Source of the DNA: Amphiscolops sp. MND2022
Taxonomy: Eukaryota
Direction of reading: 5' to 3'
NCBI GenBank assembly: GCA_964187785.1
Contig: OZ076409.1
Location: 45,448,001 to 45,512,000, forward strand
Length of the DNA: 64,000 nucleotides
This document shows, piece by piece, positions 29,060-64,000 of the stretch. Position numbers and translations under genes: made by a program. Under the pieces are notes generated by a model. It did no database searches and was not told where the DNA came from. It saw only the letters and a program-made list of their open reading frames with translations. The number at the start of each line of letters is the position of its first letter. Position 1 is the stretch's first letter.

Positions 29060-31430
29060 ACCATGAGGAACCATACTTTACTTTCATGGCAACCGGTTAA
29101 AAATTTGCGAAACGTTTCCATTTTACGTGCTTCAACCTCAATTGCCTTGGCTCCAGGATTAGGAGTTTCGCGTCAGACGACTGGGGGAAGAACATCAGCA
29201 ACTGTGACAACCCACACCAAAATTTTACCTATCAACCAAGGGAACATGATAACACCATCTAAGCGTTTCCCATCAGTTCGGTACAGTCCACGCGGCTCGA
29301 GCACTTAAGGCAAGTCGAGAGATCCCAACGTCGTCTTTATGAGAGAATTGAGAGTAGCATGACGTGAGAAACGACCTGCACTCTTGGTCCAAAAAAGACC
29401 GTGTAAGTCGTCCCGTTCAACTTTTAACACAGTGGCACGTATGCGCAACACATATGTTGGCTCCGAGTCGTGAACCATTCGAAATCCGAAGTTGCTGATT
29501 GTCAAGTTTCAGACCTAGGTTCTTGCAAGGAACAACGTTCAATCACTGAGACCCGAAATTGGCTTGATGAGCGTTAAAAACTTTCGATCGTTTCTCATCC
29601 TATCTAGAAATCAAATCTTGGGCGGCTTTGACGTAGAAAAGTTGGGTCCAATTTTTCTGGCTTCCATCGAAATAACTTGCCTGTTGATTCGTCAAACTCA
29701 ACCATTTCTCCAGCGCTTTCTTGAAGGATAATGTTGCAGAGGAAACACAGAGACCACCCATTTCAGCGGGCAGAGGCAGCTGAGTACCCGCGAAAACGTC
29801 GCAATTCACGTTACATACTTTGGAAAGCCCGTCCAGTACCTCTTTTGTCACACGTTTCCAAGATAGCTGGATTATTGAATTATGTACTGGTTCTCTAGAA
29901 GAACAACAACTTGTCAGACCGAAGCAATTTTTGAACATTAGAAATCATCAAGAGCATCGGGTTTTTCGAAAACTCCATTACCTTCTTCCAGTTCATTGAG
30001 TTTTTTCCAATAAGTCTGCCTGCGATTTCGTGCCGAGCGGTGAACCAGGGAAAATTAGTTCATCTTTCGTTGGCGTTTTAATTCCGGGGCAGATATTTTG
30101 AACGAGTCTAAATTTGTTGGTCGTCGTGGTTTAGTGATGTCACTAAGCAAAAAAATTTCGTGAGCTTAAGGGCCAGTCCAAGCATTTTCCTCCTCAACAA
30201 TTTTTGTGAGATCTTTCAGAACGGTTCTTTAATCATCTTTTAAATTTCCATCGTCGAGATACCATAAGTTTAATTTCGACTCCAAACTGTCAATCAGATA
30301 CTGAATGGAAACCGAAAGTAAAGTTGAAGACTCAAGATCTCCTGGCTGTGTCCCTTCATATCCTTTTATTACCTTATCATCGTAAAAAAAGAAACACGGT
30401 TGTCTCTCACTCATAACTTTCGGTGTGTATTTGGAAAGTTTTCCGGAGAATGAAATAAAGGTTTGTCGAATTGAAAGGTTCTCCAAAGTCAGTTTTCAAG
30501 TTTAGGTTTTTTTGGGCTGGGGCTTTCTTTCAGACAAAGGAACACATGTGGCCGATTGGTGCCAACACATACTTGTCGACTTTCATATCGTACTTGACGT
30601 GTGTCAAAGACATGGTACCGACACATTTTGCGGACAACCGGCGGAAAGTATTGACCACAGCGATAAAACGGAGTCGTCCTTCAGACTTTTTGTCCAGACT
30701 AGTTTGTACAAATGAAGTACGGATTAGGTTCGGAAGTACATTTTCTTCGAGAATCATATTGACAAAATTTGTTAGGGCTCTCAGGAAATTCAGCCTGTTT
30801 GCCCGTTCGAATTGGCAGCCAAATATTTCAAAATTTTGAGCGAAATGTCATCCAAACCTGCACTAGGGTGGTTGTGGAGTGACATGAGAGCAATATGGAC
30901 GATGAGCTCAGAGATTGAAAAACAAACATCATATATGGTGTCCGGGACTGTGCAAAGTTTCCTCTGGGTATGTTTCAGCTTGAGGGCCGCGTAATTGTCG
31001 ACCGTGAAGGCTGCAATGTCATCGTCGCCTACTTCCATTCCGATTCCGGCCTTAACAATACCTTCGTCTAATTTAATGCAACAGGAACGCAGTTGTTGGT
31101 ATATTTCCGTTTCCTGCTGCAATTTTTCTGCCACATTTCTGTTGTTTTTTTCTCGAAAACCATACCGAACACGTTTGTTGATATTTGCACTGAGTGATGA
31201 CCTCTGACGTTTAACTCATAAAACAACTTAGAGAGGAGAGCAATAAATACCGCAAGGCAAAATCTGACAGGGTTTCCCTAAAAAAATTCAGGTATCACGT
31301 TTTCAGCTAGGGGTATCCCTGAAGTTGAAGGAACTCTTTTCAACTGAACAACGCCTGAAATGAAAAGTAACTGGTCCAAATTCCTCATCATGACAGTTAG
31401 GGATAGTGTCACAGAAGAGACCCTACAACA
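29060..31430 (-). mobile_element. Decayed CRE-like non-LTR retrotransposon (RT + restriction-like endonuclease)
   Basis: Minus-strand motifs SAGLDDIS, LRFIAVVNTFRRLSAK, EGTQPGDL, LWYLDDG, LPAEMGGL; the RLE region is homologous to 33230-33470. Many stops and frameshifts. Confidence 0.8.
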
Positions 31431-34135: not shown

Positions 34136-37090
34136 CCCCCGCTTTGCCGACAGTCGAGCAAGGTGTTGTTGCGTCTTCGTCTTACCCAGTCCCTTCGTGA
34201 AAATGTCAGCTCAATTGTCACCACTTGCAATAAACTTCAGATAACTCGACTGATTCTTCACTGTCTCTCGCACATAGGCCATCCGAGTTGCAAAGTGTTT
34301 CGTCTTTGCGCTGTTGTAATCTCTGGTTGCTTATGCTAGGCACGATTGACTGTCCGTGAACAAAGTTGTCGCTATGGATTCTCCAAGAGTGTCCAGAATC
34401 CCCCGCAAATGCACCGCTTCCTTTACAGCTTTGCTCAAGGTATGAAGTTCTGCCTCAATGGCTGAAGTCGCTACATACGTTTGTCGTCTAGCAGCCCACG
34501 ATATTGCCCCACTACCCACGTTGAAGCAGAAACCAGTGATGCTTCGTCTATCGTCCTTGCAGCTGGCATAGTCTGAATCCGTGTATCCATTTAGGCCTGT
34601 ATCATCGCACTTCATGAAAGTGATGCCCACGTCAGCTGTACCTCTGAGGTAGCGTAAGACGTGCTTCGCTGCTTGCCAGTGAGCAAACCCAGGGTTGCTA
34701 AGAAATCGAGAAAGTAGGTGGGCCGGGAAAGCCAGGTCAGGTCGAGTGGACTGTGAGAGGTAAGCAATGCTACCCACTAGACCTCTGTAGTCATGTCTCA
34801 ACATTTGCTGTTGCTCATCTGATCCGTCTTCTGGCATCTGATCCTTCGTCAGCTCCAGCTTGTCTGCGAGTGGTGTTGAAGCTACCTTGCACTCGCCCAT
34901 ACCGTGTTTGCGAAGTAGGTTGCTCACATACCCCTGATGCTTCATTGTCAGCGAATCGTCACCCCACTTGAAGGAAATTCCCAAGAACCACGTCAGACGA
35001 CCGTTTCCGCCAATGTTGAACCGCTCGCTCATCTTGTCATTGAACCATGTGGTGAATTGACTGTCAGTGGACCCGTAAAGAATATTATCCACCAAGATCA
35101 CTATTCAGCACTTGTGGCCATTCCTCGTCAGAGTCAGTAAGCAAGGGTCGTGAAATGATGCCTTGAAGTTGAGCTCAAACAGATGGGAAGTGACACACTC
35201 AAACGAATTGCGCCCCGATTGCTTTAGTCCATAAAGTGACCGCTTAAGCTTGCACGCCATCTGTTTGCCCTTTTGGTACCCCTCTGGCTGCCCCATGTAG
35301 ACGTCTTCGTGAATTGGTGCGTTCAGGTATGCTGTCTTTATGTCCATCTGATTGAAATGCATACCCAGCTTCACCTCACATGCCAGGACAGTTCTGAGTG
35401 TAGACAGCTTCGCGGTTGGTGAGTAGGTGTCGTGAAAAGTGTTGTGCCCCATTACTTGATGCCAGTGCTTGATAGAGTGATGCATCATTGACAGTGACCC
35501 CGTTTCCACAGGTTGAGCCATCACACTGAAAAGTTCGTCGTTTGTCATCATTGGCACAACAGTTCCATTGGGCATCTTGATGGTTGGGTCGTCATTGAAC
35601 TGAATCATTGCCCTCTTGTCCGTCAATCGCTTGACTGACACCAGATTCCTCGCGTAGGATGGCACCCAGAAGGCATCCCTGCGTTCCAGTAGACAAGAAC
35701 GGCCCGTATTGTCCTTCACAAAGCATGACACTGTCCCACGTCCTCTGATCTCTGCACGACTGCTGTTAGCGTTGCATACGTCTGCCAGAAAACCCTCGTC
35801 CAGATCAGAGAAGAGCTCTTTGTTCTTGATCATGAAGCCGTTGCACCCAGAGTCAATGAGAAGCTCAATGCTCCCCTTGTCGTAGCAACCTGCCCTGGAA
35901 GCCCCGAAGCTGAAGAAGTCCGCTGATGAATGATTGCTGGATTGACCCGAGCCACATCCTCCACTTGAGCGTTTTGCTGTCCCTTCCTGCAAGATGAAGC
36001 CAGACGCCCCTTCTGACCACAGTTGAAGCAAGTCCTCGTCTCCCGACTGTGGCAGTCCTTAGCTCGGTGCCCCATCTTTCCACACTTGAAGCACTTTGGA
36101 GGCTTCCTCCCGGCTGAGTGAAATGTTGTCATCGATGTCTCGCTGGGAACACAGAGACCCCTGGTTGCTGCGAAGTTGACGAAGTCCTGCTTCATCTCGT
36201 AGTACCCCTTTGCTGTATCGAAGTTGAGGACTGCCACCACCCTGTCGAAGTCACTTGGAAGATCCTTGAGAATCATCGCTTTGAAGAGAGCATCTGAGAC
36301 AACTTCTCCTGCAAGATGAAGCCAGACGCCCCTTCTGACCACAGTTGAAGCAAGTCCTCGTCTCCCGACTGTGGCAGTCCTTAGCTCGGTGCCCCATCTT
36401 TCCACACTTGAAGCACTTTGGAGGCTTCCTCCCGGCTGAGTGAAATGTTGTCATCGATGTCTCGCTGGGAACACAGAGACCCCTGGTTGCTGCGAAGTTG
36501 ACGAAGTCCTGCTTCATCTCGTAGTACCCCTTTGCTGTACCGAAGTTGAGGACTGCCACCACCCTGTCGAAGTCACTTGGAAGACCCTTGAGAATCATCG
36601 CTTTGAAGAGAGCATCTGAGACCACTTCCCCCGCTTCAGCCAGATCCAGTTTGAGCCCTTCTGCTTTGGTGAGGTAGTCAGTCACCTCCTCCCCTGATGT
36701 CATCTTGAGACCAGTGAGCTGTGTCATCAGTGATTGAACACGAGGCCGTTCAGTTGATTTGTGGAGCTTCGTCAAAGCTGTCCAGGCAGCAGTCCCATTC
36801 GGCTTGTGCACTCTGATGAAGTTGATGCTTGCCTTGTTAAGGCACTGAACCAGCTCGCACCACACCATGTACTGTAGTTTGGCTCGATCTGCTTCTTCCC
36901 CCTCTCGCTTGACACGTTCGTCATTCGTCTCCACATCTTTTTGAGGTGTTGTTTCGATTCTGTCCAGAAGGCAGTCAGAAAGTCCCAGATCATAGACTCT
37001 TGCTTCGAACTGCTCCAGAAAAGTGGGGAAGTCATCCTCTCGTCCACTAAACAGCAGGTTCACTTTTCGAGAGTGTCGTTGTGCCGTCAT
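34136..37090 (-). pseudogene. Copia gag-pol, disrupted (integrase core deleted, 322-bp gag duplication, stops)
   Basis: ATG at 37090 (MTAQRHSRK). The pre-integrase motif WHQVMGH is joined directly to RT-proximal FHDTYSPTAK at ~35440. RNase H continues through stops to ADIFTKGL. Confidence 0.88.
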
Positions 37091-37363
37091 CGTGATCTGC
37101 GCTGGTGAGGCCAGGGTTCTCAAACTCAAACTCAAACTTTCAAACTCAAACTCAAACTTTCAAACTTTTAGGTTTCAAACTCAAATTCAAACCAAACTTC
37201 ATTATATTATCAAACTTAAACCCAAACTCAAGCTCACGAAAAAAGTTCAAACAGTTTGAGTTGTTTGACTATTTCTTAATATAACGCAGATGGCTATAAT
37301 TTTTTCATTTTTATTAAAATTTCAGCAAGGTGATTCAGAAGTTTTAGTTTTAGATCGTATGGT

Positions 37364-38098
37364 ATGGGCAAGTCGTCTCCGAAGAAAGACTGGCGTCCAT
37401 TTGCAATCAAAAATCCGCGGCTCAGGGGAAAGTTTTTGTGCGGTTATAAAGATAGGAAGAAAACTAATTTGAGAGGATGTATAGCTTGTAATTTGGATAT
37501 TCGGTGCAAAAACGGAGTCACGTCACCCTTATTGCGTCATGTTGATACCTGTGTTGGATCAAGTCCCGTTATGGAAGAGGATCAATCATTGTTAAAGTTT
37601 CTTTCTGGAAAGAGCAGAAAATATAATCTAGCACAGCGTCTAGTTTACAATTCCAATTTTTCTGTTAACAAGATTTGCACTTCCAAAAAGTTTTTGGAAA
37701 TATTTAAGTTGGCGAAGCTTGGAATTCCAACATACTCTGAATTACAGGAAAGTCTTACAAGCTCATACCTTGAAAGAATTGAGTCTGTATCCAATTTGCT
37801 GGCTGCAAATGATCCGCTCGTTTTGTGTTTGGACAAGTGGACTAACCACCACGACGAAAAATTCATCGGAGTATATGTTCTTCAAAAGCGAAAGAAGATA
37901 TTTTTAGGTCTTGAGAATTATGATTCAAAATGCACTGCTACTTATATGAAAGATCGCATAATCGAAATTCTGCAGAAATTTGGCATTGGAAATTTTGACC
38001 GATTCGTTTGCGTTATGTCAGACTGCGGGTCAGACGTTGTACACTGTATGAACACTGCCGCGCCAAAGGTGCTAACTCCAATTGTAATTGACAATTAA
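37364..38098 (+). CDS. Truncated hAT transposase (BED finger + first catalytic motifs)
   Basis: DWRPF...CIAC...SPLLRHVDTC (BED-like), LCLDKWT and VMSDCGSDV. The C-terminal catalytic and dimerisation regions are missing. Confidence 0.8.
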   Translation: MGKSSPKKDWRPFAIKNPRLRGKFLCGYKDRKKTNLRGCIACNLDIRCKNGVTSPLLRHVDTCVGSSPVMEEDQSLLKFLSGKSRKYNLAQRLVYNSNFSVNKICTSKKFLEIFKLAKLGIPTYSELQESLTSSYLERIESVSNLLAANDPLVLCLDKWTNHHDEKFIGVYVLQKRKKIFLGLENYDSKCTATYMKDRIIEILQKFGIGNFDRFVCVMSDCGSDVVHCMNTAAPKVLTPIVIDN

Positions 38099-40325: not shown

Positions 40326-40839
40326 AATATTAGAGGACGTTTCGGCGACAAAGACGTTTCGGCGACACTTCGTCTGTATATATATCGCCGAAACGTCTGT
40401 CACCGAAACGTCCAGAATCCGTTTCTTTTTGTTACTGGTCTACTGGGATAGTGGTTGGTATGGGGTCCCTACTTTCGTTGCGGACCACGGGTGTGTCTTC
40501 TCCCCCCAACATGATAATACACATGGCACTTGATTGATGACGAAGATCCATGATATCTGAGAGGAAAAAATTTTGACATGTGTTTTAACATGCATCACCG
40601 GGTATGCACTTGTTTGTGGGAATAGTTCAATTGTGTCGAAATTCTTTATCTTCTTGTGATTGAAGGTTGGGGTGATGTCACGCTGTAAACTCGCAGAGCT
40701 TATATTGTCAGTAATGACTCCACATCGATAACTAGGAGAAACTTCAATTGCGGAACTAATTTTTAGAAAACGTCGGACCTTCCACGTCTACCTTCTTGAA
40801 AAACCTCTGTAAAAAATTGTGCGTGTGCAATCAAGAAAA

Positions 40840-40955: not shown

Positions 40956-41239
40956 AATGTTTTAATGTCCGTTTTGTTTCATTAAGAAATATATGTCTTC
41001 TTTGCTTCGTAATCGTTACCACTTCACATGCCTCTTTGAGTTTCTGAATTGAGATTTCTCCTGGGTCCATTGAACTCTCTGGTTGCATGGTCCTTTCCTT
41101 ATTTTCTTTTATGTTTCCTATGTTGGTTGAATTTTTTGTCTGCCGCCCGGGCTGGGGGCACATGATGAATATAGAAGCGTTTTTTAAGAAACGCTGAATG
41201 ATGACGACGATCCAATTCTGATTGAGGTATTTTTAGAAA

Positions 41240-41308
41240 GCTGGGCGATGAAATTCAACCTCCTCGCATGGTGCCTAGTGGACGTCTCTGACGACAAAAA
41301 GAATTTCA
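41240..41308 (+). ncRNA. HDV-like self-cleaving ribozyme (predicted)
   Basis: P1 GCTGGGC/GCCTAGT (G1-U wobble); P2 TGAAATTC/GAATTTCA; P3 ACC/GGT; L3 TCCTCGCAT; P1.1 CC/GG; P4 CGTC/GACG; J4/2 with C at 41295. G1 is the first base after the TSD. Confidence 0.82.
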
Positions 41309-41622
41309 GGCTGGGGGGCACATACCAGGTACTAACTGGAAGAGCCTCTCCGGAACAGAGGGTAGCTGGATTAGCCGACCAGTCCACCTCTTCAAAAAGA
41401 AAACAGGCGAACCGATCGGCAACGTTTGTCAACCGAAGACATCAGAGGGTTTACAAATGTTCTGCTCTGGAAACAGACATTGAAAGCAATCCAGGGCCGG
41501 GACACACGAGCTGTAGAAGGAAACAACGAAGAGAAATAAAGAGAGAGAAGCGAAAGATTTCCTTAAAAAACCAACTAGAGGGAACAGAGATAAAAATAGC
41601 CACCTGGAATCCTTCTCGATGA
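41248..41622 (+). CDS. RTE 5' ORF with a 2A/StopGo motif and the first strand of the APE domain
   Basis: DIESNPGP at 41476-41499, then a basic linker and KIATWN. The deletion junction is at ~41611. Confidence 0.7.
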   Translation: MKFNLLAWCLVDVSDDKKNFRLGGTYQVLTGRASPEQRVAGLADQSTSSKRKQANRSATFVNRRHQRVYKCSALETDIESNPGPGHTSCRRKQRREIKREKRKISLKNQLEGTEIKIATWNPSR

Positions 41623-43316
41623 GAACCAGGCAGGTTTCAGGGCTGACCGCTCTACCGCAGACGCCACACAGATTTTCGTCAGAATAAATGAGGACATCAA
41701 ACAGTATCAAAGGTCGAGAAATGTCACAGACAACGCAGAAGCCATCTTACTGGACCTGAGGAAGGCATACCCTCGAGTAAACAAGCCGATCCTCTGGGCC
41801 CTGCTGAGAAGATACTCACTGCCACAGAAAATAATAAATAAACTAATGGACCTCCACGAGCACACGAGCTACAAGGTCAAAGGTGCGGAGGGTATGAGTA
41901 CAGCATTCTACCCAGAAAGAGGATTGAGGGAAGGGTGTGCTACCTCACCCGCACTTTTCAACATATATCACCAAGCAGCTATTCGCATAGCAGAGAGCAA
42001 GCGGGAGGAAGCTGCCAGGGAAAATGGAAAACAATGCGGGATCAGATGGTCGTATTTACCAGGAAACAGATTCCCTCCACAACGCAGAGGTCAACAAAAC
42101 TCGGATGCAAGCCAAAAAATTTTCACGCTCTCTCTCTTCGCTGATGATACAACAGTAATCGGTCACAACGATGAAGTAGAAGAGGGAAAGAGGATAGTGG
42201 AAAGATGTCTCCTCGAGTTTGAAGAACAAACGAACTTAGACAAAGAGGAGAAAATGGTTTTTGGCGACGAGAAGAACAACACAGAAATTCGAATGCTTGG
42301 AACGTGGATGGAGAACAATAATGACACAACGAAACGCATCCAAAGGGCGGGAAAGAACTGGGCTACCATCAAAAGGAGGTTCCTGAAATGTCGTCTGACC
42401 AAGCGAACACAGGCCAAAGTAGTGGAAGCCTGCATAGAGAGCACAATGCTCTTCAATGCATCGGTTCGCCCGTTCAAGCTGAAAGAGATCAAAAGGATGC
42501 AAACTTCCATGGACAAGAGATATAGATACATCTGGAGCGATAAGAATGGCCAACCTCTACGCCAGATGGAAGAGAAACACTTAAATATGGCGGACATCAG
42601 AGAACAACTGAATGTAACATCTCTCAGAACGAAGATAGATAAAGCTCACCTCCTAAGAATGGGCCACGTTCTGAGAATGAACGATGACAGGTTGGTGAAA
42701 CAGGCAGTGCTAGGATGGTACAGCAAACTAGAAGAAGAGAATAAGACGAAAAAACTCCCACACAGGAAACACCATAACATACTGGCGCAAACTTATCAAT
42801 GAAGCCGGCGAGGATCCCAAAAATATTGAACACCTGATAACCGATCGAACCAAGTGGAGAGCGCTCGTACGGAACAGAGTAAAACACCTCGAAGAATATG
42901 AGAGACAGCAAGGCCACAACCACGTAATCCAACCCGATGAAATCATCAGAGACAGAAGGGAATCGACGAAAACACCAACCGAAAACACCCTTCAATGCGA
43001 GATTTGTGACAAAGTGTGCAGAAGCAAAGCAGGCCTAGCTATACACAGGAAAAGGCTTCACGACTCGCAACAAAAAGAGACTCAATGCGAGAAATGCGGC
43101 AAGACTTTCACACAAGAAGCCACACTGAAGAACCACATGAAAAAGTGCCTCGAAACATCACAAACACTTGCCTTCAGCTCGAAAATATGTCCCGAAGAAA
43201 GGAGTCTGCCTGAGATGCGATTCCCTGATAGCGCTTACAAACATGTCAAGACACCAAGCAACGAACAAATGCAAAACCCTCAGTTTACTGAAGAAGACAA
43301 ACGGAACCGATACTGA
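41612..43316 (+). pseudogene. RTE reverse transcriptase + zinc fingers, frameshifted near 42760 and ~43160
   Basis: Open RT frame 41612-42802; CEICDKVCRSKAGLAIHRKRLH and CEKCGKTFTQEATLKNHMKKC follow downstream. Confidence 0.85.
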
Positions 43317-44029
43317 TGCCGCAAGGCGATAAAACAGAAGAAGAAGTATTTTTAGAAAATATTCCAATCTTCGAAACTTGTGCTGAAACAAATATTTTCA
43401 GATCACATGACGACTGGAGATACGCAGTTTGATTTGACGGGAACTGATAGTCCTAGGAATGTAGAGAACGAATTATCACAAACGTTAGCGGGTTTTGCTT
43501 CTGTACAAGAAAGTGCAAGCTCTGGTGCTAATCAAGGAATGGCTTCTAAGGGCGAGATGTCTTCCAGTTCAAGCAGATTAACAGAAGGCGAATCCGTGAG
43601 TGATTTGATTGATTATTTTAATCAGGAATACCAAGAAATAAATTCTGACCAAATGAGAGCAAACAAGGAATGAAAAGTTATGGGTTCAAAACAAAATCTC
43701 GGAAAAATTTGGGATGATGTCATAAGTTAGCCAATTTTCGAAGAAATCTTTTCTCTTAGAATGCTGTTGGTCAATGAAATGTTTCTATGGACGAATAACA
43801 TTGATGCCCATAATAGTAAAAACGAGGATCAATGTTTTAAACTCCATTGTGAACCTTTTCGTATTTACATGCATCTTCAAACTGTGAACATATGAAAAAG
43901 TTGAAGTCTCGTGATTTAAAATGGCTCAAACCGTAGTCTCATTACACTTGCGATAAGTGCGATCTCGTTTCAGCCGGCAAGTCTAATTTGTTGCGATAAA
44001 AGATGCTTGCTTTTCAACCATGAGGTTTC

Positions 44030-45068: not shown

Positions 45069-47346
45069 ATGGTGAAACCTAAGCCACCTTCAACCCTGCA
45101 CCCATTAGGACTGAGTAATACGTTCCTGCCAAACCACGAGAATGCTCTTGCTGCCAGTTCCGGCAATAGTTTGACTGACTCAGAAAATCGGTCGGCGCAA
45201 GAAGGCGACGCTGATGTGTGGCTTGATGACACTGCAGGCGCAACTTCATGGAACGGTACCGCGGATGCCACTTCTAGTCGAAGCGGAAGTGTTCCCGTCG
45301 ATCAAGCTGGCATGCCCATCTACAGTAACGGAGTTCATACCGAAGACCCAGCAACAGTTGTTCCAAATTATTTCGAGAGTCTTGCTTTCAGTCCTGATTA
45401 CAACTCCAGTGGAGCCTTTTCGCCCATAGACTTCAACCCCCAATCGGCACCATATCTCTCACCACAACAAGCAGCAGCGGCTGCCGCAGCTGTTGGTTTC
45501 TCTCCATTCTACAATATATCTCCCGACTACCCTTCTTGGGCACAGGGTCCAGGCACATTTGATTTCGCTCCCACGCTCACTTCGCCTGTCGATACAAACG
45601 CCAGTTTAAAATTGCTCGAGCAGAATTTTACCAACTTGTCGTTGTTCGCTCCTGCTGCAGCTGGCTCGCCATTACATGCAATCGATTTCGCAAACTACCA
45701 GGCGTTATTTCCTACCGGTAAAAACAAGTCCTATGCGAAGATTTCCGGTCAGCCGACAGCCATTGGCAGTTCTAGTAGAAACTTCCAGAAGCCTAGGCAA
45801 CAAAGATGGAACAATGGAGTGAGCTCCAATACCTTCGGTGGTCAACCTTCTTCGCATCACCGACAGAACCCGAACTCGTACTATCACCGACCACAGCACC
45901 CGCAAACTATGCCGGATATTGGTGAGTTCTTTATCTTTACGTATATTTCCTGAAAGTCATTCAGCAGACGGTAACAATGAAAGCGCCTTTTCTTAAGTAC
46001 GCTTTTCCTCGAGTTTCAAAAATAGAAACATTAGTGCTTTTTGGGAAAAAGTTCGATCTTGAGAGCTCGAAATGATTTTGTACATTAACATTACGTTTGT
46101 AAGCACAATGAGATGCTTTTGGCAGTCTTATTAAATACCCAGAAGTCATAAATGGTTTTAGCTAAAACAAAGATGAATGCTTATTATTTTCAAATCTGTG
46201 TGGAATGTCACGTTATTTGATCATAGAAAACGCTATTTGAGATACCTAATTGACGAATGTTTAGGCACCTGGGGCTACAATGAAGACTTTTCTGCTGCTA
46301 ACAAGACTATGACTAGATCTGGAAAAATCGTGCCGACTCCGAGTGAAAAGGAAAATGAAGTTTTGAGAAAACTGAAGCAAAACAACAATTATAACCCCGT
46401 AGACTTCAACTGCAGTCCGAAAGAAGCCAAGTTTTTCGTAATAAAAAGCTATAGCGAAGATGACATTCATCGCTCGATAAAGTACAAAATTTGGTGTTCT
46501 ACCGAACGGGGTAATCGGAAGCTGAATGAATGTTATGGAAGATTCCACAACAAGGGACCCATTTATCTCATGTTTAGTGTTAATGGGTCCGGACATTTTT
46601 GTGGAGTTGCTGAGATGAAATCTTTTGTCGACCTCGAAACTCAGCAAAAAGTGTGGTCTCAGAGTAAGTGGAAAGGTTCTTTTGACGTGGAATGGATTTT
46701 TGTAAAAGACGTTCCTAACTCGCAATTAAGGCACATTAGGCTGGAAAACAATGAGAACAAGCCGGTTACCAACTCACGAGACACACAAGAAATTCCATTC
46801 GAAAAGGGAAAATTGATACTCAAGGTGTTCCACAAGTATGAACACGAGACGAGTTTGTTCGACGATTTCTCGCACTATGAGAGCAGAGAGCTGGAAGCAA
46901 ATGCTGGAACGGCTGCTGGAGAAGGTGATTTGCAAAACACTCTTGGATGCAGTGCCGTAGGACTAGATAACACCTTGGTTGCATACCAACCGCTAAGCAA
47001 TGCCGCTGTTCCTGGGTCGAATGGAGAAGCCAATGCGCTGGGAGATGAAGGCACTGAAAGTAGCACTGTTTGCATAACTGGTCAAGTCAGCAACTCACTT
47101 CTCGTTCCTGCCGCCCCGCATGTCGCTGAAGGAGCTTCAGATACCAATGGTGCCATCGCCGTTGCCCCAACTTCTAATAGAGACAATATTAATCCCTCTT
47201 CGGCAACTGAGAACAGCAGAACTTTGACAAACACTTCAAATTGTTCACAGCTGAATTCCTCATCTTTCGATAACAGTTGCCCTGCGCCCCCATCTCTGAT
47301 GTCACAATCAACCAACGTGCCGTCAATAGAGTCGGTGGCGCCTTAA
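45069..47346 (+). CDS. YTHDF: YTH-domain family (YTHDF-type) m6A reader, ~644 aa; exons 45069-45921 and 46265-47346
   Basis: YTH domain [24 protein letters not shown]...[15 protein letters not shown]...VWSQSKWKG...[34 protein letters not shown] low-complexity N-terminus. Phase-1 intron GTGAGT...TTTAG. The start codon is uncertain. Confidence 0.92.
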
Positions 47347-49224: not shown

Positions 49225-52200
49225 GTTTTTGGTTCGATTATAAATCTTTCCACTAATTTTCAAGAAAAATATGGGGACAGAAAAAAACCCTTATTTTAAG
49301 TGCCTTGGAAAGATTTGTGTTCCAGCTGAGTGATTTTTAGCTGAAAGGGGATAACGAGTGAATATACGATCAGCAGTTTGTCGTCCTTTGGGTAGTGGAG
49401 TCTTTTTTCCAGGGGAAGGGTGACCGGGTCTTTTGTTACTCAGCATTGTGGGGCGGCGGCGGTGAGCGAAGGAAGGGAGCAGTTATTGAAATAATGCATT
49501 CACCATTTATTCATTCTGAATAGATAATTACATTTTCAATATATTTTCAAATATTATGTTGATGGATCATTTGAGTTTCAATGATAAATACATTCTTCCT
49601 GTCCAGAATGGCACTTGTGCTGTGAGTGCAAACTTCAATCGGAATGCTAGTTGGATCATCATGACTCCAGAAGAACATTGGCTAAAACTTTCTTTTTCTT
49701 CCGCAATATTTTGGCGATATATGTGCTGTGCATTAGTAAAATAAGCCTTCGAAGCCAAAAAACGGGTTTGTCGGGGGTTTTTGGTTTCGTTTAAAAACGA
49801 CGTATCGTAATAGTAACAGAGTTTTCTTCAGTACCGCCTAAAAGTTTAATTTAATAGTCCTACATGAATGCAATCCATGCTGAAGCAGCGATAATTCGAA
49901 TAGAACCGTTCGAAAGACGAGAGTTTGTTCCATAACTTGACGGAAGTTTTTGTTCATTATATTTTAATTTAGCGTTCGCTGTGATTAGCAAAAGTGATTA
50001 AAAACAACTCGCCAAAAATTCAGATGAGTGACTGACTGTTTTTTAAAGAGGATAACATTTTTTGTATATATACAAAAAACAGGCTTCTTTAAAATTTTTT
50101 CAAACATTATGCGTCCAAACTCTGGAATGACGACTGAAACCGATGAAGATACGCCTAAACACTGGAATAACAGCTGAAACCAATGCGTGCAGTACAATTA
50201 GGTCTTTTTTTACCAAATTTAAGTAAGTTTAGGCGTTATTCCACCACTATAGTGATTTGATCAGAATAACGACTAAAATTTTAAAAAAGGTCCCAACTCT
50301 GGAATAACGACTAAATTCAATGTAGATACGTCTAAACACTGGAATAACGGCAAAAATCAGTGCGTACAGTACAATTAGGCCTTGTTTTATCAAACTAAAG
50401 TGACGTTAGGTGTTAATCTACCACTTTAGTGGTTTTATCAGCATGAAGACTAAAATTAAAGAAAAAAGGTCCAAACACTGGAATAACGGCTAAAATCAAT
50501 TCGTACAGTATAATTAAGCCTTGGTTTGCCTACCTTTAGGTGTTATTCCACCATTCAAGTGGTTTTTCCAAAACAAGGACTAAAATTTAAGAAAAAATGT
50601 CCAAACTCTGGAATAACAACTAAAATCGATGAGGATACGTCTAAACACCGGAAAACAGCTAAAATCAATGCGTACAGTAGAATTAGGCCTTAGTTATTCC
50701 ATTTAGAGTGATTTTAGGCGTTATTCTACCACTACTGTAATTTATCAGAATAAGGACTAAATTTAAAGAAAAAAGGTCCAAACTCTGGAATGACGACAAA
50801 AATCAATGAAGATACGTCTAAACACTGGAATAACGGCAAACATCAAAGCTTACAGTACAATCAGGCCTTGTTTTACCAAATTAAATTGATTTTAGGTGTT
50901 ATTCCGCCACTGAAAAGATTTTTCCAGAACAAGGACTAACATTTAAGAAAAAATGTCCAAACTCTGGAATAACAACTAAAATCAATGAGGATACGTCTAA
51001 ACACCGGAAAACCGCTAAAATCAATGCGTACATTAGAATTAGGCTTAAGTTTATCACATTAAAGCGATTTTAGGCGATTCGACCACAATAGAGATATTAT
51101 CAGAATAAGGACTGAAATTAAAGAAAAAAAGGTTCAAACTCTGGAATGACAACAAAAATCGATGAAGATACGTCAAAACACGGGAAAAACAGCTAACATC
51201 AATGCGTACAGTAGAATTAGGCCTTAGTTTATCCAATTAAAGTGATTTTAGGCGTTTTTCTACCACTACAGTGATTTATCAGAATAAGGACAGTTTTTGG
51301 TTCGATTATAAATCTTTCCACTAATTTTCAAGAAAAATATGGGGACAGAAAAAAACCCTTATTTTAAGTGCCTTGGAAAGATTTGTGTTCCAGCTGAGTG
51401 ATTTTTAGCTGAAAGGGGATAACGAGTGAATATACGATCAGCAGTTTGTCGTCCTTTGGGTAGTGGAGTCTTTTTTCCAGGGGAAGGGTGACCGGGTCTT
51501 TTGTTACTCAGCATTGTGGGGCGGCGGCGGTGAGCGAAGGAAGGGAGCAGTTATTGAAATAATGCATTCACCATTTATTCATTCTGAATAGATAATTACA
51601 TTTTCAATATATTTTCAAATATTATGTTGATGGATCATTTGAGTTTCAATGATAAATACATTCTTCCTGTCCAGAATGGCACTTGTGCTGTGAGTGCAAA
51701 CTTCAATCGGAATGCTAGTTGGATCATCATGACTCCAGAAGAACATTGGCTAAAACTTTCTTTTTCTTCCGCAATATTTTGGCGATATATGTGCTATGCA
51801 TTAGTAAAATAAGCCTTCGAAGCCAAAAAACGGGTTTGTCGGGGGTTTTTGGTTTCGTTTAAAAACGACGTATCGTAATAGTAACAGAGTTTTCTTCAGT
51901 ACCGCCTAAAAGTTTAATTTAATAGTCCTACATGAATGCAATCCATGCTGAAGCAGCGATAATTCGAATAGAACCGTTCGAAAGACGAGAGTTTGTTCCA
52001 TAACTTGACGGAAGTTTTTGTTCATTATATTTTAATTTAGCGTTCGCTGTGATTAGCAAAAGTGATTAAAAACAACTCGCCAAAAATTCAGATGAGTGAC
52101 TGACTGTTTTTTAAAGAGGATAATATTTTTTGTATATATACAAAAAACAGGCTTCTTTAAAATTTTTTCAAACATTATGCGTCCAAACTCTGGAATGACG

Positions 52201-53360
52201 ACTGAAACCGATGAAGATACGCCTAAACACTGGAATAACAGCTGAAACCAATGCGTGCAGTACAATTAGGTCTTTTTTTTACCAAATTTAAGTAAGTTTA
52301 GGCGTTATTCCACCACTATAGTGATTTGATCAGAATAACGACTAAAATTTTAAAAAAGGTCCCAACTCTGGAATAACGACTAAATTCAATGTAGATACGT
52401 CTAAACACTGGAATAACGGCAAAAATCAGTGCGTACAGTACAATTAGGCCTTGTTTCATCAAACTAAAGTGACGTTAGGTGTTAATCTACCACTTTAGTG
52501 ATTTTATCAGCATGAAGACTAAAATTAAAGAAAAAAGGTCCAAACACTGGAATAACGGCTAAAATCAATTCGTACAGTATAATTAAGCCTTGGTTTGCCT
52601 ACCTTTAGGTGTTATTCCACCATTCAAGTGGTTTTTCCAAAACAAGGACTAAAATTTAAGAAAAAATGTCCAAACTCTGGAATAACAACTAAAATCGATG
52701 AGGATACGTCTAAACACCGGAAAACAGCTAAAATCAATGCGTACAGTAGAATTAGGCCTTAGTTATTCCATTTAGAGTGATTTTAGGCGTTATTCTACCA
52801 CTACTGTAATTTATCAGAATAAGGACTAAATTTAAAGAAAAAAGGTCCAAACTCTGGAATGACGACAAAAATCAATGAAGATACGTCTAAACACTGGAAT
52901 AACGGCAAACATCAAAGCTTACAGTACAATCAGGCCTTGTTTTACCAAATTAAATTGATTTTAGGTGTTATTCCGCCACTGAAAAGATTTTTCCAGAACA
53001 AGGACTAACATTTAAGAAAAAATGTCCAAACTCTGGAATAACAACTAAAATCAATGAGGATACGTCTAAACACCGGAAAACCGCTAAAATCAATGCGTAC
53101 ATTAGAATTAGGCTTAAGTTTATCACATTAAAGCGATTTTAGGCGATTCGACCACAATAGAGATATTATCAGAATAAGGACTGAAATTAAAGAAAAAAAG
53201 GTTCAAACTCTGGAATGACAACAAAAATCGATGAAGATACGTCAAAACACGGGAAAAACAGCTAACATCAATGCGTACAGTAGAATTAGGCCTTAGTTTA
53301 TCCAATTAAAGTGATTTTAGGCGTTTTTCTACCACTACAGTGATTTATCAGAATAAGGAC
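49225..53360. repeat. 2068-bp tandem duplication spanning the unique/satellite boundary
   Basis: 49225-51291 recurs at 51293-53360 (ORF pairs 49556/51624 and 49985/52053), almost identical. Confidence 0.95.
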
Positions 53361-56300
53361 TAAATTTAAAGAAAAAAGGTCCAAACTCTGGAATGACGAC
53401 AAAAGTCAATGAAGATACGTCTAAACACTGGAATAACGGCAAACATCTAAGCTTACAGTACAATCAGGCCTTGTTTTACCAAATTAAATTGATTTTAGGT
53501 GTTATTCCGCCACTGAAAAGATTTTTCCAGAACAAGGACTAACATTTAAGAAAAAATGTCCAAACTCTGGAATAATAACTAAAATCAATGAGGATACGTC
53601 TAAACACCGGAAAACCGCTAAAATCAATGCGTACATTAGAATTAGGCTTAAGTTTATCACATTAAAGCGATTTTAGGCGATTCGACCACAAAAGAGATAT
53701 TATCAGAATAAGGACTGAAATTAAAGAAAAAAAGGTTCAAACTCTGGAATGACAACAAAAATCGATGAAGATACGTCAAAACACGGGAAAAACAGCTAAC
53801 ATCAATGCGTACAGTAGAATTAGGCCTTAGTTTATCCAATTAAAGTGATTTTAGGCGTTTTTCTACCACTACAGTGATTTATCAGAATAAGGACTAAATT
53901 TAAAGAAAAAAGGTCCAAACTCTGGAATTACGACAAAAGTCAATGAAGATACGTCTAAACACTGGAATAACGGCAAACATCTAAGCTTACAGTACAATCA
54001 GGCCTTGTTTTACCAAATTAAATTGATTTTAGGTGTTATTCCGCCACTGAAAAGATTTTTCCAGAACAAGGACTAACATTTAAGAAAAATTGTCCAAACT
54101 CTGGAATAACAATTAAAATCAATGAGGATACGTCTAAACACCTGAAAACCGCTAACATCAATGCGTACAATAGAATTAGGCCTAAGTTTATCACACTAAA
54201 GCGATTTCAGGCGATTCGACCACAATAGAGATATTATCAGAATAAGGACTGAAATTAAAGAAAAAAAGGTCCAAACTCTGGAATGACAACAAAAATCGAT
54301 GAAGATACGTCTAAACACCGGAAAAACAGCTAACATCAATGCGTACAGTAAAAGCTGAAACCAATGCGTGCAGTACAATTAGGTCTTTTTTTACCAAATT
54401 TAAGTAAGTTTAGGCGTTATTCCACCACTATAGTGATTTGATCAGAATAACGACTAAAATTTTTAAAAAAGGTCCCAACTCTGGAATAACGACTAAATTC
54501 AATGTAGATACGTCTAAAGACTGGAATAACGGCAAAAATCAGTGCGTACAGTACAATTAGGCCTTGTTTTATCAAACTAAAGTGACGTTAGGTGTTAATC
54601 TACCACTTTAGTGATTTTATCAGCATGAAGACTAAAATTAAAGAAAAAAGGTCCAAACACTGGAATAACGGCTAAAATCAATTCGTACAGTATAATTAAG
54701 CCTTGGTTTGCCTACCTTTAGGTGTTATTCCACCATTCAAGTGGTTTTTCCAAAACAAGGACTAAAATTTAAGAAAAAATGTCCAAACTCTAGAATAACA
54801 ACTAAAATCGATGAGGATACGCCTAAACACCGGAAAACAGCTAAAATCAATGCGTACAGTAGAATTAGGCCTTAGTTATTTCAATTAGAGTGATTTTAGG
54901 CGTTATTCTACCACTACTGTAATTTATTAGAATAAGGACTAAATTTAAAGAAAAAAGGTCCAAACTCTGGAATGACGACAAAAATCAATGAAGATACGTC
55001 TAAACACTGGAATAACGGCAAACATCAAAGCTTACAGTACAATCAGGCCTTGTTTTACCAAATTAAATTGATTTTAGGTGTTATTCCGCCACTGAAAAGA
55101 TTTTTCCAGAACAAGGACTAACATTTAAGAAAAATTGTCCAAACTCTGGAATAACAATTAAAATCAATGAGGATACGTCTAAACACCTGAAAACCGCTAA
55201 CATCAATGCGTACAATAGAATTAGGCCTAAGTTTATCACATTAAAGCGATTTCAGGCGATTCGACCACAATAGAGATATTATCAGAATAAGGACTGAAAT
55301 TAAAGAAAAAAAGGTTCAAACTCTGGAATAACAACTAAAATCAATGAGGATACGTCTAAACACCGGAAAACCGCTAAAATCAATGCGTACATTAGAATTA
55401 GGCTTAAGTTTATCACATTAAAGCGATTTTAGGCGATTCGACCACAATAGAGATATTATCAGAATAAGGACTGAAATTAAAGAAAAAAAGGTTCAAACTC
55501 TGGAATGACAACAAAAATCGATGAAGATACGTCAAAACACGGGAAAAACAGCTAACATCAATGCGTACAGTAGAATTAGGCCTTAGTTTATCCAAATAAA
55601 GTGATTTTAGGCGTTTTTCTACCACTACAGTGATTTATCAGAATAAGGACTAAATTTAAAGAAAAAAGGTCCAAACTCTGGAATGACGACAAAAGTCAAT
55701 GAAGATACGTCTAAACACTGGAATAACGGCAAACATCTAAGCTTACAGTACAATCAGGCCTTGTTTTACCAAATTAAATTGATTTAAGGTGTTATTCCGC
55801 CACTGAAAAGATTTTTCCAGAACAAGGACTAACATTTAAGAAAAATTGTCCAAACTCTGGAATAACAATTAAAATCAATGAGGATACGTCTAAACACCTG
55901 AAAACCGCTAACATCAATGCGTACAATAGAATTAGGCCTAAGTTTATCACATTAAAGCGATTTCAGGCGATTCGACCACAATAGAGATATTATCAGAATA
56001 AGGACTGAAATTAAAGAAAAAAAGGTCCAAACTCTGGAATGACAACAAAAATCGATGAAGATACGTCTAAACACCGGAAAAACAGCTAACATCAATGTGT
56101 ACAGTAAAAGTAGGCCTCGACCAACTTAAAGTATTTTTAGGTGTTGTTCCACCACTGAAGTGATTTTTCCAAAACGAGGACTAAAGTTCAAGAAAAAAGG
56201 TCCAATCTCTGGAATAACAACTAAAATCGATGAGGATACGTCCAAACACGGGAAAACAGCTGAAATCAATGCGTACAGTAGAATTAGGCCTTAGTTTATC

Positions 56301-59300
56301 CAATTAAAGTCATATAAGGCGTTATTCTACCACAACAGTGGTTTATCAGAATAAGGACTAAAAGAAAAGAAAAAAGGTCCAAACTATGGAATGACGACAA
56401 AAATCGATGAAGATACGTCTAAACACCGGAAAACCGCTAAAATCAATGCGTACATTAGAATTAGGCCTAAGTTTATCACATTAAAGCAATTTTAGGCGAC
56501 TCGACCACTTTAGAGATATTATCAGAATAAGGACTGAATTTAAAGAAAAAAGGTTCAAACTCTGGAATGACAACAAAAATCGATGAAGATACGTCAAAAC
56601 ACCGGAAAAACAGCTAACATCAATGCGTACAGTAAAAGTAGGCCTTGACCAACTTAAAGTATTTTTAGGTGTTATTCCTCCACCGAAGTGATTTTTCCAA
56701 AACGAGGACTAAAGTTTAAGAAAAAAGGTCCAAATTCTGGAATAACAACTAAAATAGATGAGGATACGTCTAAACACCGCAAAACCGCTAAAATCAATGC
56801 GTACAATAGAATTTGGCCGAAATTTATCACATTAAAGCGATTTTAGGCGACTCGACCACTGTAGGGATTTTATCGGAGCTGGGACTAAAATTAAAGAAAA
56901 AAGGTCCAAACGCTGGAATGACGACAAAAATCGATGAAGATACGTCTAAACACGGATAACGGCTAACATCAATGCTTACAGTACGATAAGGCCTTGTTTT
57001 ACCAAATTGAAGTGATTTTAGGTGTTATTCCACCACTGAAGTTGTAATTCCAAAACAAGGACCAAAATTAAAGAAAAAAGGTTCAAACTCTGGAATATCA
57101 ACTAAAATCGATGAGGATACGTCTAAACACCGGAAAACAGCTAAAATTAATGCGTACAGTAGAATTAGGCCTTAGTTATTCCAATTAGAGTGATTTTAGG
57201 CGTTATTCTACCACTACTGTACTTTATCAGAATAAGGACTAAATTTAAAGAAAAAAGGTCCAAACTCTGGAATGACGACAAAAATCAATGAAGATACGTC
57301 TAAACACTGGAATAACGGCAAACATCAAAGCTTACAGTACTACAATCAGGCCTTGTTTTACCAAATTAAATTGATTTTAGGTGTTATTCCGCCACTGAAA
57401 AGATTTTTCCAGAACAAGGACTAACATTTAAGAAAAAATGTCCAAACTCTGGAATAACAACTAAAATCAATGAGGATACGTCTAAACACCGGAAAACCGC
57501 TAAAATCAATGCGTACATTGGAATTAGGCTTAAGTTTATCACATTAAAGTGATTTTAGGCGATTCGACCACAATAGAGATATTATCAGAATAAGGACTGA
57601 AATTAAAGAAAAAAAGGTTCAAACTCTGGAATGACAACAAAAATCGATGAAGACACGTCAAAACACGGGAATAACGGCAAACATCTAAGCTTACAGTACA
57701 ATCAGGCCTTGTTTTACCAAATTAAATTGATTTTAGGTGTTATTCCGCCACTGAAAAGATTTTTCCAGAACAAGGACTAACATTTAAGAAAAATTGTCCA
57801 AACTCTGGAATAACAATTAAAATCAATGAGGATACGTCTAAACACCTGAAAACCGCTAACATCAATGCGTACAATAGAATTAGGCCTAAGTTTATCACAT
57901 TAAAGCGATTTCAGGCGATTCGACCACAATAGAGATATTATCAGAATAAGGACTGAAATTAAAGGAAAAAAGGTCCAAACTCTGGAATGACAACAAAAAT
58001 CGATGAAGATACGTCTAAACACCGGAAAAACAGCTAACATCAATGCGTACAGTAAAAGTAGGCCTTGACCAACTTAAAGTATCTTTAGGTGTTGTTCCAC
58101 CACTGAAGTGATTTTTCCAAAACGAGGACTAAAGTTCAAGAAAAAAGGTCCAATCTCTGGAATAACAACTAAAATCGATGAGGATATGTCTAAACACGGG
58201 AAAACAGCTAAAATCAATGCGTACAGTAGAATTAGGCCTTAGTTTATCCAATTAATGTCATATAAGGCGTTATTCTACCACAACAGTGGTTTATCAGAAT
58301 AAGGACTAAAAGAAAAGAAAAAAGGTCCAAACTATGGAATGACAACAAAAATCGATGAAGATACGTCTAAACACCGGAAAACCGCTAAAATCAATGCGTA
58401 CATTAGAATTAGGCCTAAGTTTATCACATTAAAGCAATTTTAGGCGACTCGACCACTTTAAAGATATTATCAGAATAAGGACTGAATTTAAAGAAAAAAG
58501 GTTCAAACTCTGGAATGACAACAAAAATCGATGAAGATACGTCAAAACACCGGAAAAACAGCTAACATCAATGCGTACAGTAAAAGTAGGCCTTGACCAA
58601 CCTAAAGTATTTTTAGGTGTTATTCCTCCACCGAAGTGATTTTTCCAAAACGAGGACTAAAGTTTAAGAAAAAAGGTCCAAATTCTGGAATAACAACTAA
58701 AATAGATGAGGATACGTCTAAACACCGGAAAACCGCTAAAATCAATGCGTACAACAGAATTTGGCTGAAGTTTATCACATTAAAGCGATTTTAGGCGACT
58801 CGACCACTGTAGGGATTTTATCGGAGCTGGGACTAAAATTAAAGAAAAAAAGGTCCAAACGCAGGAATGACGACAAAAATCGATGAAGATACGTCTAAAC
58901 ACGGATAACGGCTAACATCAATGCTTACAGTACACTAAGGCCTTGTTTTACCAAATTGAAGTGATTTTAGGTGTTATTCCACCACTGAAGTTGTATTTCC
59001 AAAACAAGGACCAAAATTAAAGAAAAAAAGTTCAAACTCTGGAATATCAACTAAAATCGATGAGGATACGTCTAAACACCGGAAAACAGCTAAAATCAAT
59101 GCGTACAGTAGAATTAGGCCTTAGTTGTTCCAATTAGAGTGATTTTAGGCGTTATTCTACCACTACTGTACTTTATCAGAATAAGGACTAAATTTAAAGA
59201 AAAAGGTCCAAACTCTGGAATGACGACAAAAATCAATGAAGATACGTCTAAACACTGGAATAACGGCAAACATCAAAGCTTACAGTACTACAATCAGGCC

Positions 59301-62300: not shown

Positions 62301-64000
62301 GAACTAGGCCTTAGTTTATCCAATTAAAGTCATATAAGGCGTTATTCTACCACAACAGTGGTTTATCAGAATAAGGACTAAAAGAAAAGAAAAAAAGTCC
62401 AAACTATGGAATGACGACAAAAATCGATGAAGATACGTCTAAACACCGGAAAACCGCTAAAATCAATGCGTACATTAGAATTAGGCCTAAGTTTATCACA
62501 TTAAAGCAATTTTAGGCGACTCGACGACTATAGAGATATTATCAGAATAAGGACTGAATTTAAAGAAAAAAGGTTCAAACTCTGGAATGACAACAAAAAT
62601 CGATGAAGATACGTCAAAACACCGGAAAAACAGCTAACATCAATGCGTACAGTAAAAGTAGGCCTTGACCAACTTAAAGTATTTTTAGGTGTTATTCCTC
62701 CACCGAAGTGATTTTTCCAAAACGAGGACTAAAGTTTAAGAAAAAAGGTCCAAATTCTGGAATAACAACTAAAATAGATGAGGATACGTCTAAACACGGG
62801 AAAACAGCTGAAATCAATGCGTACAGTAGAATTAGGCCTTAGTTTATCCAATTAAAGTCATATAAGGCGTTATTCTACCACAACAGTGGTTTATCAGAAT
62901 AAGGACTAAAAGAAAAGAAAAAAGGTCCAAACTATGGAATGACAACAAAAATCGATGAAGATACGTCTAAACACCGGAAAACCGCTAAAATCAATGCGTA
63001 CATTAGAATTAGGCCTAAGTTTATCACATTAAAGCAATTTTAGGCGACTCGACCACTTTAGAGATATTATCAGAATAAGGACTGAATTTAAAGAAAAAAG
63101 GTTCAAACTCTGGAATGACAACAAAAATCGATGAAGATACGTCAAAACACCGGAAAAACAGCTAACATCAATGCGTACAGTAAAAGTAGGCCTTGACCAA
63201 CTTAAAGTATTTTTAGGTGTTATTCCACCACTGAATTGAATTTTCCAAAACACGGACTAAAATTTCAGAAAAAAGGCCCGAACTCTGGAATAACAACTAA
63301 AATCGATGAGGATACGTCTAAACACCGGAAAACCGCTAAAATCAATGCGTACATTAGAATTTGGCCTTAGTTTATTACATTAAACAGTTTTAGGCGATTT
63401 CACCACTATAATGATTTTATCAGAATTAGGACTAAAAATAAAGGAAAAAGTTCCATACTAATGAATGACGACAAAAATCGATGAAGATACGTCTAAACAC
63501 GAATAGCGGCTAACTTCAATTTTTACAGTACAATAACGCCTTGTTTTACAAAATTAAAGTAATTTTAGGTGTTATACCACCACTGAAGTAATATTTCCGA
63601 AACAAGGACTAAAATTTAAGAAAAAAGGTCCAAATTCTGGAATAACAACTAAAATCGGCGAGGATACGTCTAAACACCGGAAAACAGCTAAAATCAATGC
63701 GTACAGTAGAATTAGGCCTTGTTTTATCAGATAAAAGTGATTTTAGGCGATTCCACCACAATAGTGATTTTATCAGAATAAGGACTAAAAGCAAAGAAAA
63801 AAGGTCCAAACTCTAGAATGACGACAAAAATCGATGAAGATACGTCTAAACACGAATAACGGCTAACATCAATGCTTACAGTACAATAAGGCCTTGTTTT
63901 ACCAAATTGAAGTGATTTTAGGTGTTATTCCACCACTGAAGTTGTATTTCCAAAACAAGGACCAAAATTAAAGAAAAAAGGTTTGAACTCTGGAATGACG
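50111..64000. repeat. ~178-bp tandem satellite array with higher-order structure (runs off the window)
   Basis: GTCCAAACTCTGGAAT recurs every ~177-179 bp, with trimer periodicities of 534 and 528 bp. Interrupted once by the duplicated unique block 51293-52178. Confidence 0.97.

Follow-up and report, generated by a model that had tools for sequence, protein, structure and literature searches.

The 64-kb stretch of DNA analysed here, called the window below, carries on its forward strand a non-autonomous copy of an RTE-like LINE, 3.8 kb long in full, that has lost an internal part, and a predicted HDV-like ribozyme fold begins at the first nucleotide of this copy. The features of the copy are collected in Table 1. 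The span of the insertion is given by the 13-bp target-site duplication (TSD) found on both of its sides. We class the window copy as non-autonomous because a 1,688-nt deletion has removed its endonuclease region and a frameshift lies ahead of its zinc fingers. In the full-length copy L024, all parts are found in one 1254-aa protein that consists of a leader, the motif DIESNPGP, an APE endonuclease, an RT and C2H2 fingers. Papers cited by PMC number or DOI were accessible in part (marked "in part"), and what we take from them holds for those parts.

Table 1. Features of the insertion and of its immediate flanks, in window positions.
Feature	Position	Strand	Remark
Host target motif GACGACGA	41203..41210	+	37 nt ahead of the element, 16 nt ahead of the TSD; in the codon phase of the element's frame
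5' TSD copy, 13 bp	41227..41239	+	read from sequence
Whole insertion (RTE-like LINE, 3.8 kb when full-length; here non-autonomous, with an internal deletion)	41240..43345	+	
HDV-like double-pseudoknot ribozyme fold (P1, P1.1, P2, P3, P4)	41240..41308	+	predicted
P1	41240-46/41273-79		7 pairs including G1-U and G4-U; read by eye and by descriptor parse
P2	41249-56/41301-08		8 Watson-Crick pairs
P3	41258-60/41270-72		3 bp
L3	41261-69		9 nt
P1.1	41262-63/41280-81		CC/GG
P4	41283-86/41290-93		4 bp; followed by A, C41295 and five As
Candidate catalytic C and AAAA of J4/2	41295..41299	+	C+AAA invariant in 12/12 non-family sequences
G-rich run directly 3' of P2	41309..41319	+	predicted competitor of the ribozyme fold, perhaps an attenuator
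Stop-free leader frame, 86 codons, through the ribozyme up to the 2A-like motif	41242..41499	+	
ATG at element nt 9, within J1/2-P2	41248..41250	+	first Met of the 1254-aa protein of L024
2A-like (StopGo) candidate DIESNPGP	41476..41499	+	fits the DxExNPGP consensus (PMC5814959, in part)
Reverse transcriptase and thumb frame	41600..42802	+	RVT_1, E 9e-16
Junction of the 1,688-nt internal deletion	41610..41611	+	endonuclease and linker removed; leader frame ends at 41622
C-terminal frame, C2H2 zinc fingers	42732..43316	+	out of the RT frame in the window copy
(GAA)3 3' tail	43337..43345	+	read from sequence
3' TSD copy	43346..43358	+	read from sequence

Elsewhere, the window holds a broken Copia-type LTR element on the reverse strand (34331-37159; gag, zinc knuckles and RVT_2) with a 322-bp tandem duplication, and a long satellite array with a unit of 177-178 bp (50113-63999). 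Long ORFs are found for a G-protein alpha subunit (12742-14010), a YTH-domain protein (46177-47346), another RT (1864-2757) and a weak hAT-like (DUF659) remnant (37334-38098). An imperfect long hairpin of repeated GACGTTTCGGCGA units at 40332-40414 gives weak microRNA-model matches that stay below the gathering score.

Copies of the element and their common start

Searching the genome with nt 1-161 of the element yields at least 19 matches, 80-100% identical, which we call family A. All 19 listed matches start at nt 1, 16 of them with a G and three with an A that still pairs with U in P1, and they have different sequences upstream, except where a host repeat has been struck more than once. The TSD abuts nt 1 in 11 of the 13 copies with two ends (one TSD is mismatched, and one gave 8 bp). 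This common first nucleotide and the adjoining TSD agree with the claim of the sequence-only reading that the fold lies at the exact start of the element. That reading had also named family 5' ends upstream of 41240 as evidence that would speak against it; we find no element sequence that is shared further upstream. A family 5' end beyond 41240 was rejected, since the upstream stretches that are shared are host repeats, found at the same offset in different families (L009, L159).

Four copies are full-length, at about 3.8 kb each. Among 17 young 3' ends (96% or more), at least 12 belong to copies with the exact 5' end, four to 5'-truncated copies, and one is ambiguous. Eight of those 12 young copies are internally deleted, each by a different deletion, and the internally deleted copies examined retain the first 165-371 nt or more. 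Different deletions are seen in L020, L022, L023, L025, L027, L029, L031 and the window copy (41240-41610), where five end near nt 165-200, and in L022 the 5' end is present twice in tandem. These arrangements suggest that insertion involves a renewed engagement of the 5' RNA.

Protein searches identify related elements at about 25-33% endonuclease identity. A comparison of their copies results in seven sister families, B to H, and the shared sequence of each of them starts at GCT. In metagenomes we find 57 related loci. Of these, 19 were scanned for the fold: six loci of four families have a GCT-headed fold at the element start, one distant element is parsed differently, and 12 have no parse. 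The named relatives come from Branchiostoma belcheri and Convolutriloba macropyga, and no relatives of the lineage were found in the viral contigs searched.

Several of these relatives have peculiarities. Four of the 12 unparsed loci (L182-L184 and L187) start with C (CCTTGCC), after (GAT)n runs, and have an HDV-like fold by eye only; this metagenomic family has an ATG at nt 9 that opens a frame of 90 codons, in overlap with that of the endonuclease, as well as NPES as a degenerate motif, and is possibly a frameshift variant. A PHD-like cysteine cluster directly after NPGP is present in L050-L054, L057-L060, L075-L085, L081 and L100, and absent in family A. The Branchiostoma protein P0149 is an EXOC6 gene model with a whole element of the lineage in frame between Sec15 domains, which is probably a gene-model artefact.

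The predicted ribozyme fold

The first 69 nt of the element can be drawn as a nested double pseudoknot in which P1, P1.1, P2 and P3 come in the right order for HDV-like ribozymes; P4 is optional in these. The joining region J1/2 is the dinucleotide GA, and A41257 and A41300 are likely to be mismatched at the foot of P2; the relative L194 has a C-G pair at this place. The predicted cleavage point, 41239/41240, is set by the first nucleotide of the 7-bp P1 with its G1-U pair, which is also the first of the element, and the G1 pair is G-U or G-C in 12/12 relatives. The sequence-only reading had proposed the five helices, C41295 and the 13-bp TSD, and all are found where it had placed them in reading the sequence, the helices and C41295 also in the descriptor parse.

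Typical HDV lengths are 7-8 nt for L3 and C plus 3 nt for J4/2, with a P1 of 6-7 bp that typically begins with G1-U or G1-C. The window fold has a longer L3 (9 nt) and a longer J4/2 (C+4 or C+5), as had been noted from the sequence, together with the suggestion that this copy may be impaired. For the ribozyme, that suggestion was set aside as unsupported: nine of the 19 listed matches have the same 69 nt and 14 are within two changes of them, and a 9-nt L3 with C+AAAA or C+AAA is also present in the metagenomic pairs L194/L202 and L192/L195. Because the same lengths recur in other families, we regard the long L3 and J4/2 as a trait of the lineage and not as decay. The damage in the window copy is to the protein (the deletion and the frameshift).

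The minimum-energy structure of the isolated 69-mer, in pseudoknot-free folding, consists of the nested parts P1, P3 and P4. The plain folding energy of the site is ordinary (z 0.04, by a method that ignores pseudoknots), and when 30 nt of downstream sequence are included the nested helices lose out in the pseudoknot-free model. In that model, the G-run at 41309-41319 is predicted to disrupt the nested helices, and in this it resembles the attenuator described for L1Tc.

We searched with a descriptor written after the families had been seen; its first, strict version matched family A only, and a looser one followed. Of the 16 parses that it gives on the two strands of the 64-kb window, the one at the site scores highest (17.5, against 12.5 for the next), and 0/300 dinucleotide shuffles of the site parse when anchored at nt 1. 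An HDV-like parse from nt 1 is obtained for nine of the 10 family representatives, with 0/300 shuffles each, that of H being poor; the remaining representative, E2a, has no descriptor parse. In addition, we used a held-out covariance model of 12 sequences from other families, to which only four P1 pairs were supplied. A descriptor or Infernal-type search had been put forward as a check in the sequence-only reading, and this model picks a single significant match in the window, 41240-41307 (29.5 bits, E about 2e-5 on a rough calibration; the next has E 1.1). The covariance model also matches the starts of further copies, with seven at E below 0.05 among 26 loci. Two weak parses, at 41326-41392 and 30815-30904, were rejected for want of support from the held-out model. 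Rfam has no ribozyme family match at the window site at E up to 10, nor in four relatives at E up to 1. A loose search of the genome for the L3 pattern was uninformative, with 258 matches against 241 in the control.

Covariation, another check that had been proposed, is positive across families and lacks significance within the young family. Among 10 distinct copies of family A, 93% of the cells are paired, and within-family covariation is not significant: there is one double change in 24 pairs, and 253/500 shuffles score as high. The helices of the sister families differ in sequence yet pair. Across eight representatives, in alignments parsed to fit, 49/52 cells of P1 are paired as listed, 24/24 of P3 and 15/16 of P1.1, including a swap from CC/GG to GC/GC (the latter in family D), and every position of P2 is variable. 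In an unfitted MAFFT alignment of the 12 non-A sequences, the six core pairs are 97% paired and 2/500 shuffles score as high, a value that relatedness alone can give; controls slid along the alignment drop to 35-54%. The invariant positions of this alignment are G1, C2, T3, the U and C of L3, and the C-A-A-A of J4/2.

Reading frame and target site

The frame that leads into the endonuclease-RT (EN-RT) has no stops from nt 2-3 to NPGP in 8/8 representatives of families A-H (83-102 codons), and each alternative frame of the same leaders has 1-6 stops. There is one representative per family, chosen among intact-looking copies; other copies have stops or frameshifts. The shuffle probability of an open leader is 0.02-0.13 per family, and for the part ahead of any Met it is 0.04 (B), 0.04 (C), 0.10 (D) and 0.29 (G). 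No Met is encoded in frame ahead of NPGP in families B and D. The leader is open in four of six metagenomic copies, and it is not open in L180, in L194 or in the four-copy L182 family. Judging from these frames, the first 69 bases are likely to be both ribozyme and coding sequence.

The ATG at nt 9 is present in family A, L192/L195, L194/L202, L048 and the L182 family, and absent in families B-H; it is in frame in L192, L195 and L202. We presume that ingi also has an ATG at nt 9. The accessible parts of PMC2323293 and of the other literature searched hold no mention of such an ingi ATG.

The class A 2A core D(V/I)ExNPGP takes the form DIESNPGP in family A and is canonical in B and D; the canonical core is absent in C, E, F, G and H. 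Among 76 homologues with an N-terminal NPGP, only four have D-(I/V)-E, and most have T/S-(I/V)-H, so ribosome skipping may not be general in the lineage. In a screen of retroelement-associated 2A candidates, 7.4% were highly active (10.64898/2026.09.24.754024, in part).

The target-site analysis covers 63 of the 76 listed insertion sites, those whose 5' end is intact; eight were dropped for a damaged 5' end and five as nested or duplicated. GACGA starts exactly at -37 in 31 of the 63 sites and at -36 in four, over an upstream background that has a mean of 0.12 per position. By family, GACGA is at -37 in 12/17 sites of A, 6/7 of C, 6/9 of F, 2/7 of B, 2/7 of E, 2/7 of E2, 1/5 of H and 0/4 of D, and it is also there in the metagenomic L192 and L195. 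In two of seven 5'-truncated copies with a visible junction, the motif is found by eye about 16 nt before the TSD.

Position -37 is in the codon phase of the nt-3 frame. The upstream flank stays open longer in the element's frame (median 23 codons, against 11 and 7 in the others; p 0.010 and 4e-5), and beyond the motif the frame difference is not significant (medians 12 against 20 and 8; p 0.96 and 0.07). There are 100 or more open codons upstream at 8/63 sites in the element's frame, against 1 and 1. As the openness past the motif is not significant, yet these eight sites have long open flanks, in-frame fusion is real for a minority of sites; it may be a by-product. Upstream of the window copy the open stretch is just 17 codons long and has no Met.

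Some insertions share their surroundings. A host repeat with GATGACGA(A/C)GATC, found at window 41195-41226 and also at L006, L016, L018, L107, L129 and L158, appears to have taken insertions of families A, B, C and F, all at one offset, and an unoccupied look-alike of it lies at window 40525-40560, 664 nt upstream. In the flanks of L001/L020 and L106/L054, A and B are inserted a few bases apart in a Gypsy-like gag-pol, both in frame. Five tandem tRNA-like matches of 101 nt (L155, 61-1163) lie just upstream of a family C insertion.

Interpretation and comparison with known systems

Our preferred reading, to which we assign a probability of about 0.8, is that the HDV-type fold cuts read-through RNA just before G41240, and that the element is translated through the ribozyme and sheds its leader at the 2A-like motif. 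Fold compatibility, the shared start, the cross-family covariation, the open frame and the motif spacing are seen in the sequences. The steps that we infer (cleavage, translation start, StopGo and a motif-reading domain) would combine as follows. The fold would self-cleave with C41295 as the catalytic base, and free the element RNA from read-through transcripts. The cut RNA would be the template, which would set one 5' end common to all new copies. Translation would start inside the ribozyme, in family A at the AUG at nt 9, and families without this AUG would use a non-AUG start or upstream read-through. The 2A-like DIESNPG/P would split the ribozyme-encoded leader from the endonuclease-RT, and the protein would nick 16 nt downstream of GACGA(A/T/C)GA, resulting in the 12-13 bp duplication. 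Points that speak against this reading are the missing Rfam match, the non-significant covariation inside the family, the long L3 and J4/2, the 2-nt J1/2 (a 1-nt spacer gave little activity in Agam-2-1; PMC4908430, in part), the loss of the nested helices in the pseudoknot-free model when downstream sequence is added, the inactivity of some well-folded trypanosome examples (PMC4035085, in part), the rarity of D-(I/V)-E among the homologues, the closed leaders of L180, L194 and the L182 family, and the target motif, which family D lacks at -37 and which is rare in E, B and H.

A further proposal, which we consider doubtful, is that the lineage hijacks host translation by targeting GAC-GA(T/A)-GA within runs of acidic codons, at a spacing that aligns its frame with the codons of the target. 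In this proposal the ribozyme would switch the RNA between being translated and being retrotransposed. The frame would then be open through the ribozyme so that the 2A-like motif frees the EN-RT from a fused upstream protein, with uncut read-through RNA as the mRNA and cut RNA as the template.

The common start could have another origin in an internal promoter that initiates at nt 1 (compare Pr77 of L1Tc), in which case the ribozyme would be secondary or would trim read-through RNA. A shared start is equally expected from such a promoter, a capped transcript would go well with an AUG at nt 9, and the first 77 nt of L1Tc are both promoter and ribozyme (PMC3185411, in part). We hold this to be unlikely, as the sequences diverge widely among families while the pairing and the J4/2 C persist, and families B and D have no in-frame AUG ahead of NPGP.

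We give still less credence to a real fold that is catalytically weak or dead and is kept for protein binding, RNA stability or formation of the 5' junction. The non-canonical L3 and J4/2 and the short J1/2 would fit it. The retention of the first 165-371 nt in deleted copies suggests an integration role, and the 5' RNA of R2 has roles of this kind (PMC6765202, PMC11331408, both in part). Against it, the C at the catalytic position and the As that follow are invariant in 12/12 diverged sequences, activity is reported for a theta ribozyme whose J4/2 is elongated (PMC10879173, in part), and R2 ribozymes tolerate wide variation (PMC3774820, in part). That the helices are a chance pattern at a LINE start is highly improbable, for although the folding z of 0.04, the lack of an Rfam match and the short helices would agree with it, the held-out covariance model match, the same fold heading families of unrelated sequence, the shuffles, the window-wide ranking and the pairing in the cross-family alignment all argue for the fold.

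That a LINE may begin with an HDV-like ribozyme at its 5' end is already known. What stands out is a ribozyme of 57-90 nt that would double as coding sequence and is followed by a 2A-like motif, in a widespread lineage, and a fixed, codon-phased spacing between a ribozyme-headed element and a short target motif. The literature searched, mostly open papers and with Repbase outside its scope, has no description of an RTE-like lineage with such a target motif. Likewise, it has no description of a LINE ribozyme inside an ORF, and an earlier account is possible in the subscription literature outside that scope. The lineage bears on how uncapped, ribozyme-cut retrotransposon RNA is translated, for which its families form a natural panel of variants with an AUG at nt 9, a later AUG or no AUG, and it adds compact variants of the HDV-like fold, with an L3 of 9 nt, which escape Rfam.

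The anatomy is of RTE type, with a single ORF for APE endonuclease and RT, a short tandem-repeat tail and a TSD. The lineage RT aligns end to end with that of DUF6451-bearing elements of the same genome, at 23% over 488 aa (7/12 loci matched). The domain DUF6451, which we take to mark RTE elements, has no match in 21 proteins of the lineage. RNase H has no match in L024 or in 20 homologues, and with no such domain after the RT, the Ingi clade proper was rejected. ESM Atlas and PDB searches return only generic RT, L1, R2 and zinc-finger matches, and do not settle the clade. The sequence-only reading called the element an RTE retrotransposon; the anatomy and the alignment to DUF6451 elements are compatible with this name, which is likely to fit only in a broad sense, for a divergent lineage.

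Drz-Agam-2, a ribozyme found in mosquitoes, belongs to an RTE element. HDV-like ribozymes have been reported at the 5' ends of RTE-clade and Ingi elements (PMC5786205, PMC6765202, both in part), and bipartite, internally deleted copies for RTE, Ingi, Vingi and R2 (PMC5786205, in part). As in our lineage, nt 1 of the RTE-clade ribozymes is nt 1 of the element and the fold is a double pseudoknot, and RTE-clade LINEs have the RTE-like APE-RT, the short-repeat tail and the internally deleted copies. Unlike RTE ribozymes such as drz-Agam-2 (PMC4908430, in part), the window fold is compact: its J1/2 measures 2 nt, and it lacks a P1.2 domain. It also has a 9-nt L3, a J4/2 of C+AAAA, a location inside a protein frame and a 2A-like motif after it. 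The RT of the window lineage also differs from RTE elements in its divergence, without a DUF6451 match, and a fixed target motif lies upstream of the element.

R2 ribozymes (PMC3774820, in part) share with the window the HDV-like fold, a P1 of 6 or 7 bp and a variable P4, and for R2, too, the RNA is proposed to be freed from a co-transcript. The endonuclease of R2 is restriction-like and its one target is in rDNA, whereas the window lineage has an APE endonuclease and a short degenerate target.

L1Tc/NARTc and ingi/RIME, like the lineage, have a small HDV-like ribozyme at nt 1 (PMC3185411, PMC4035085, both in part). L1Tc and ingi also have an in-frame DxExNPGP before the APE, a single ORF and a TSD of about 12 bp, and their upstream target pattern begins GAxxAxGa, which the GACGA(T/A/C)GA of the lineage fits (PMC5814959, in part). 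In contrast to L1Tc/ingi, the lineage is without RNase H, its RT and thumb align with RTE-type elements, its tail is (GAA)n and not poly(A), and it is found in a marine animal and in metagenomic DNA. The distance from motif to nick is 16 nt in the lineage, compared with 11 nt in the published L1Tc pattern. Taken at the level of sequence, the comparison suggests that an L1Tc/ingi-like package of ribozyme, 2A and target exists on a divergent RTE-like enzyme.
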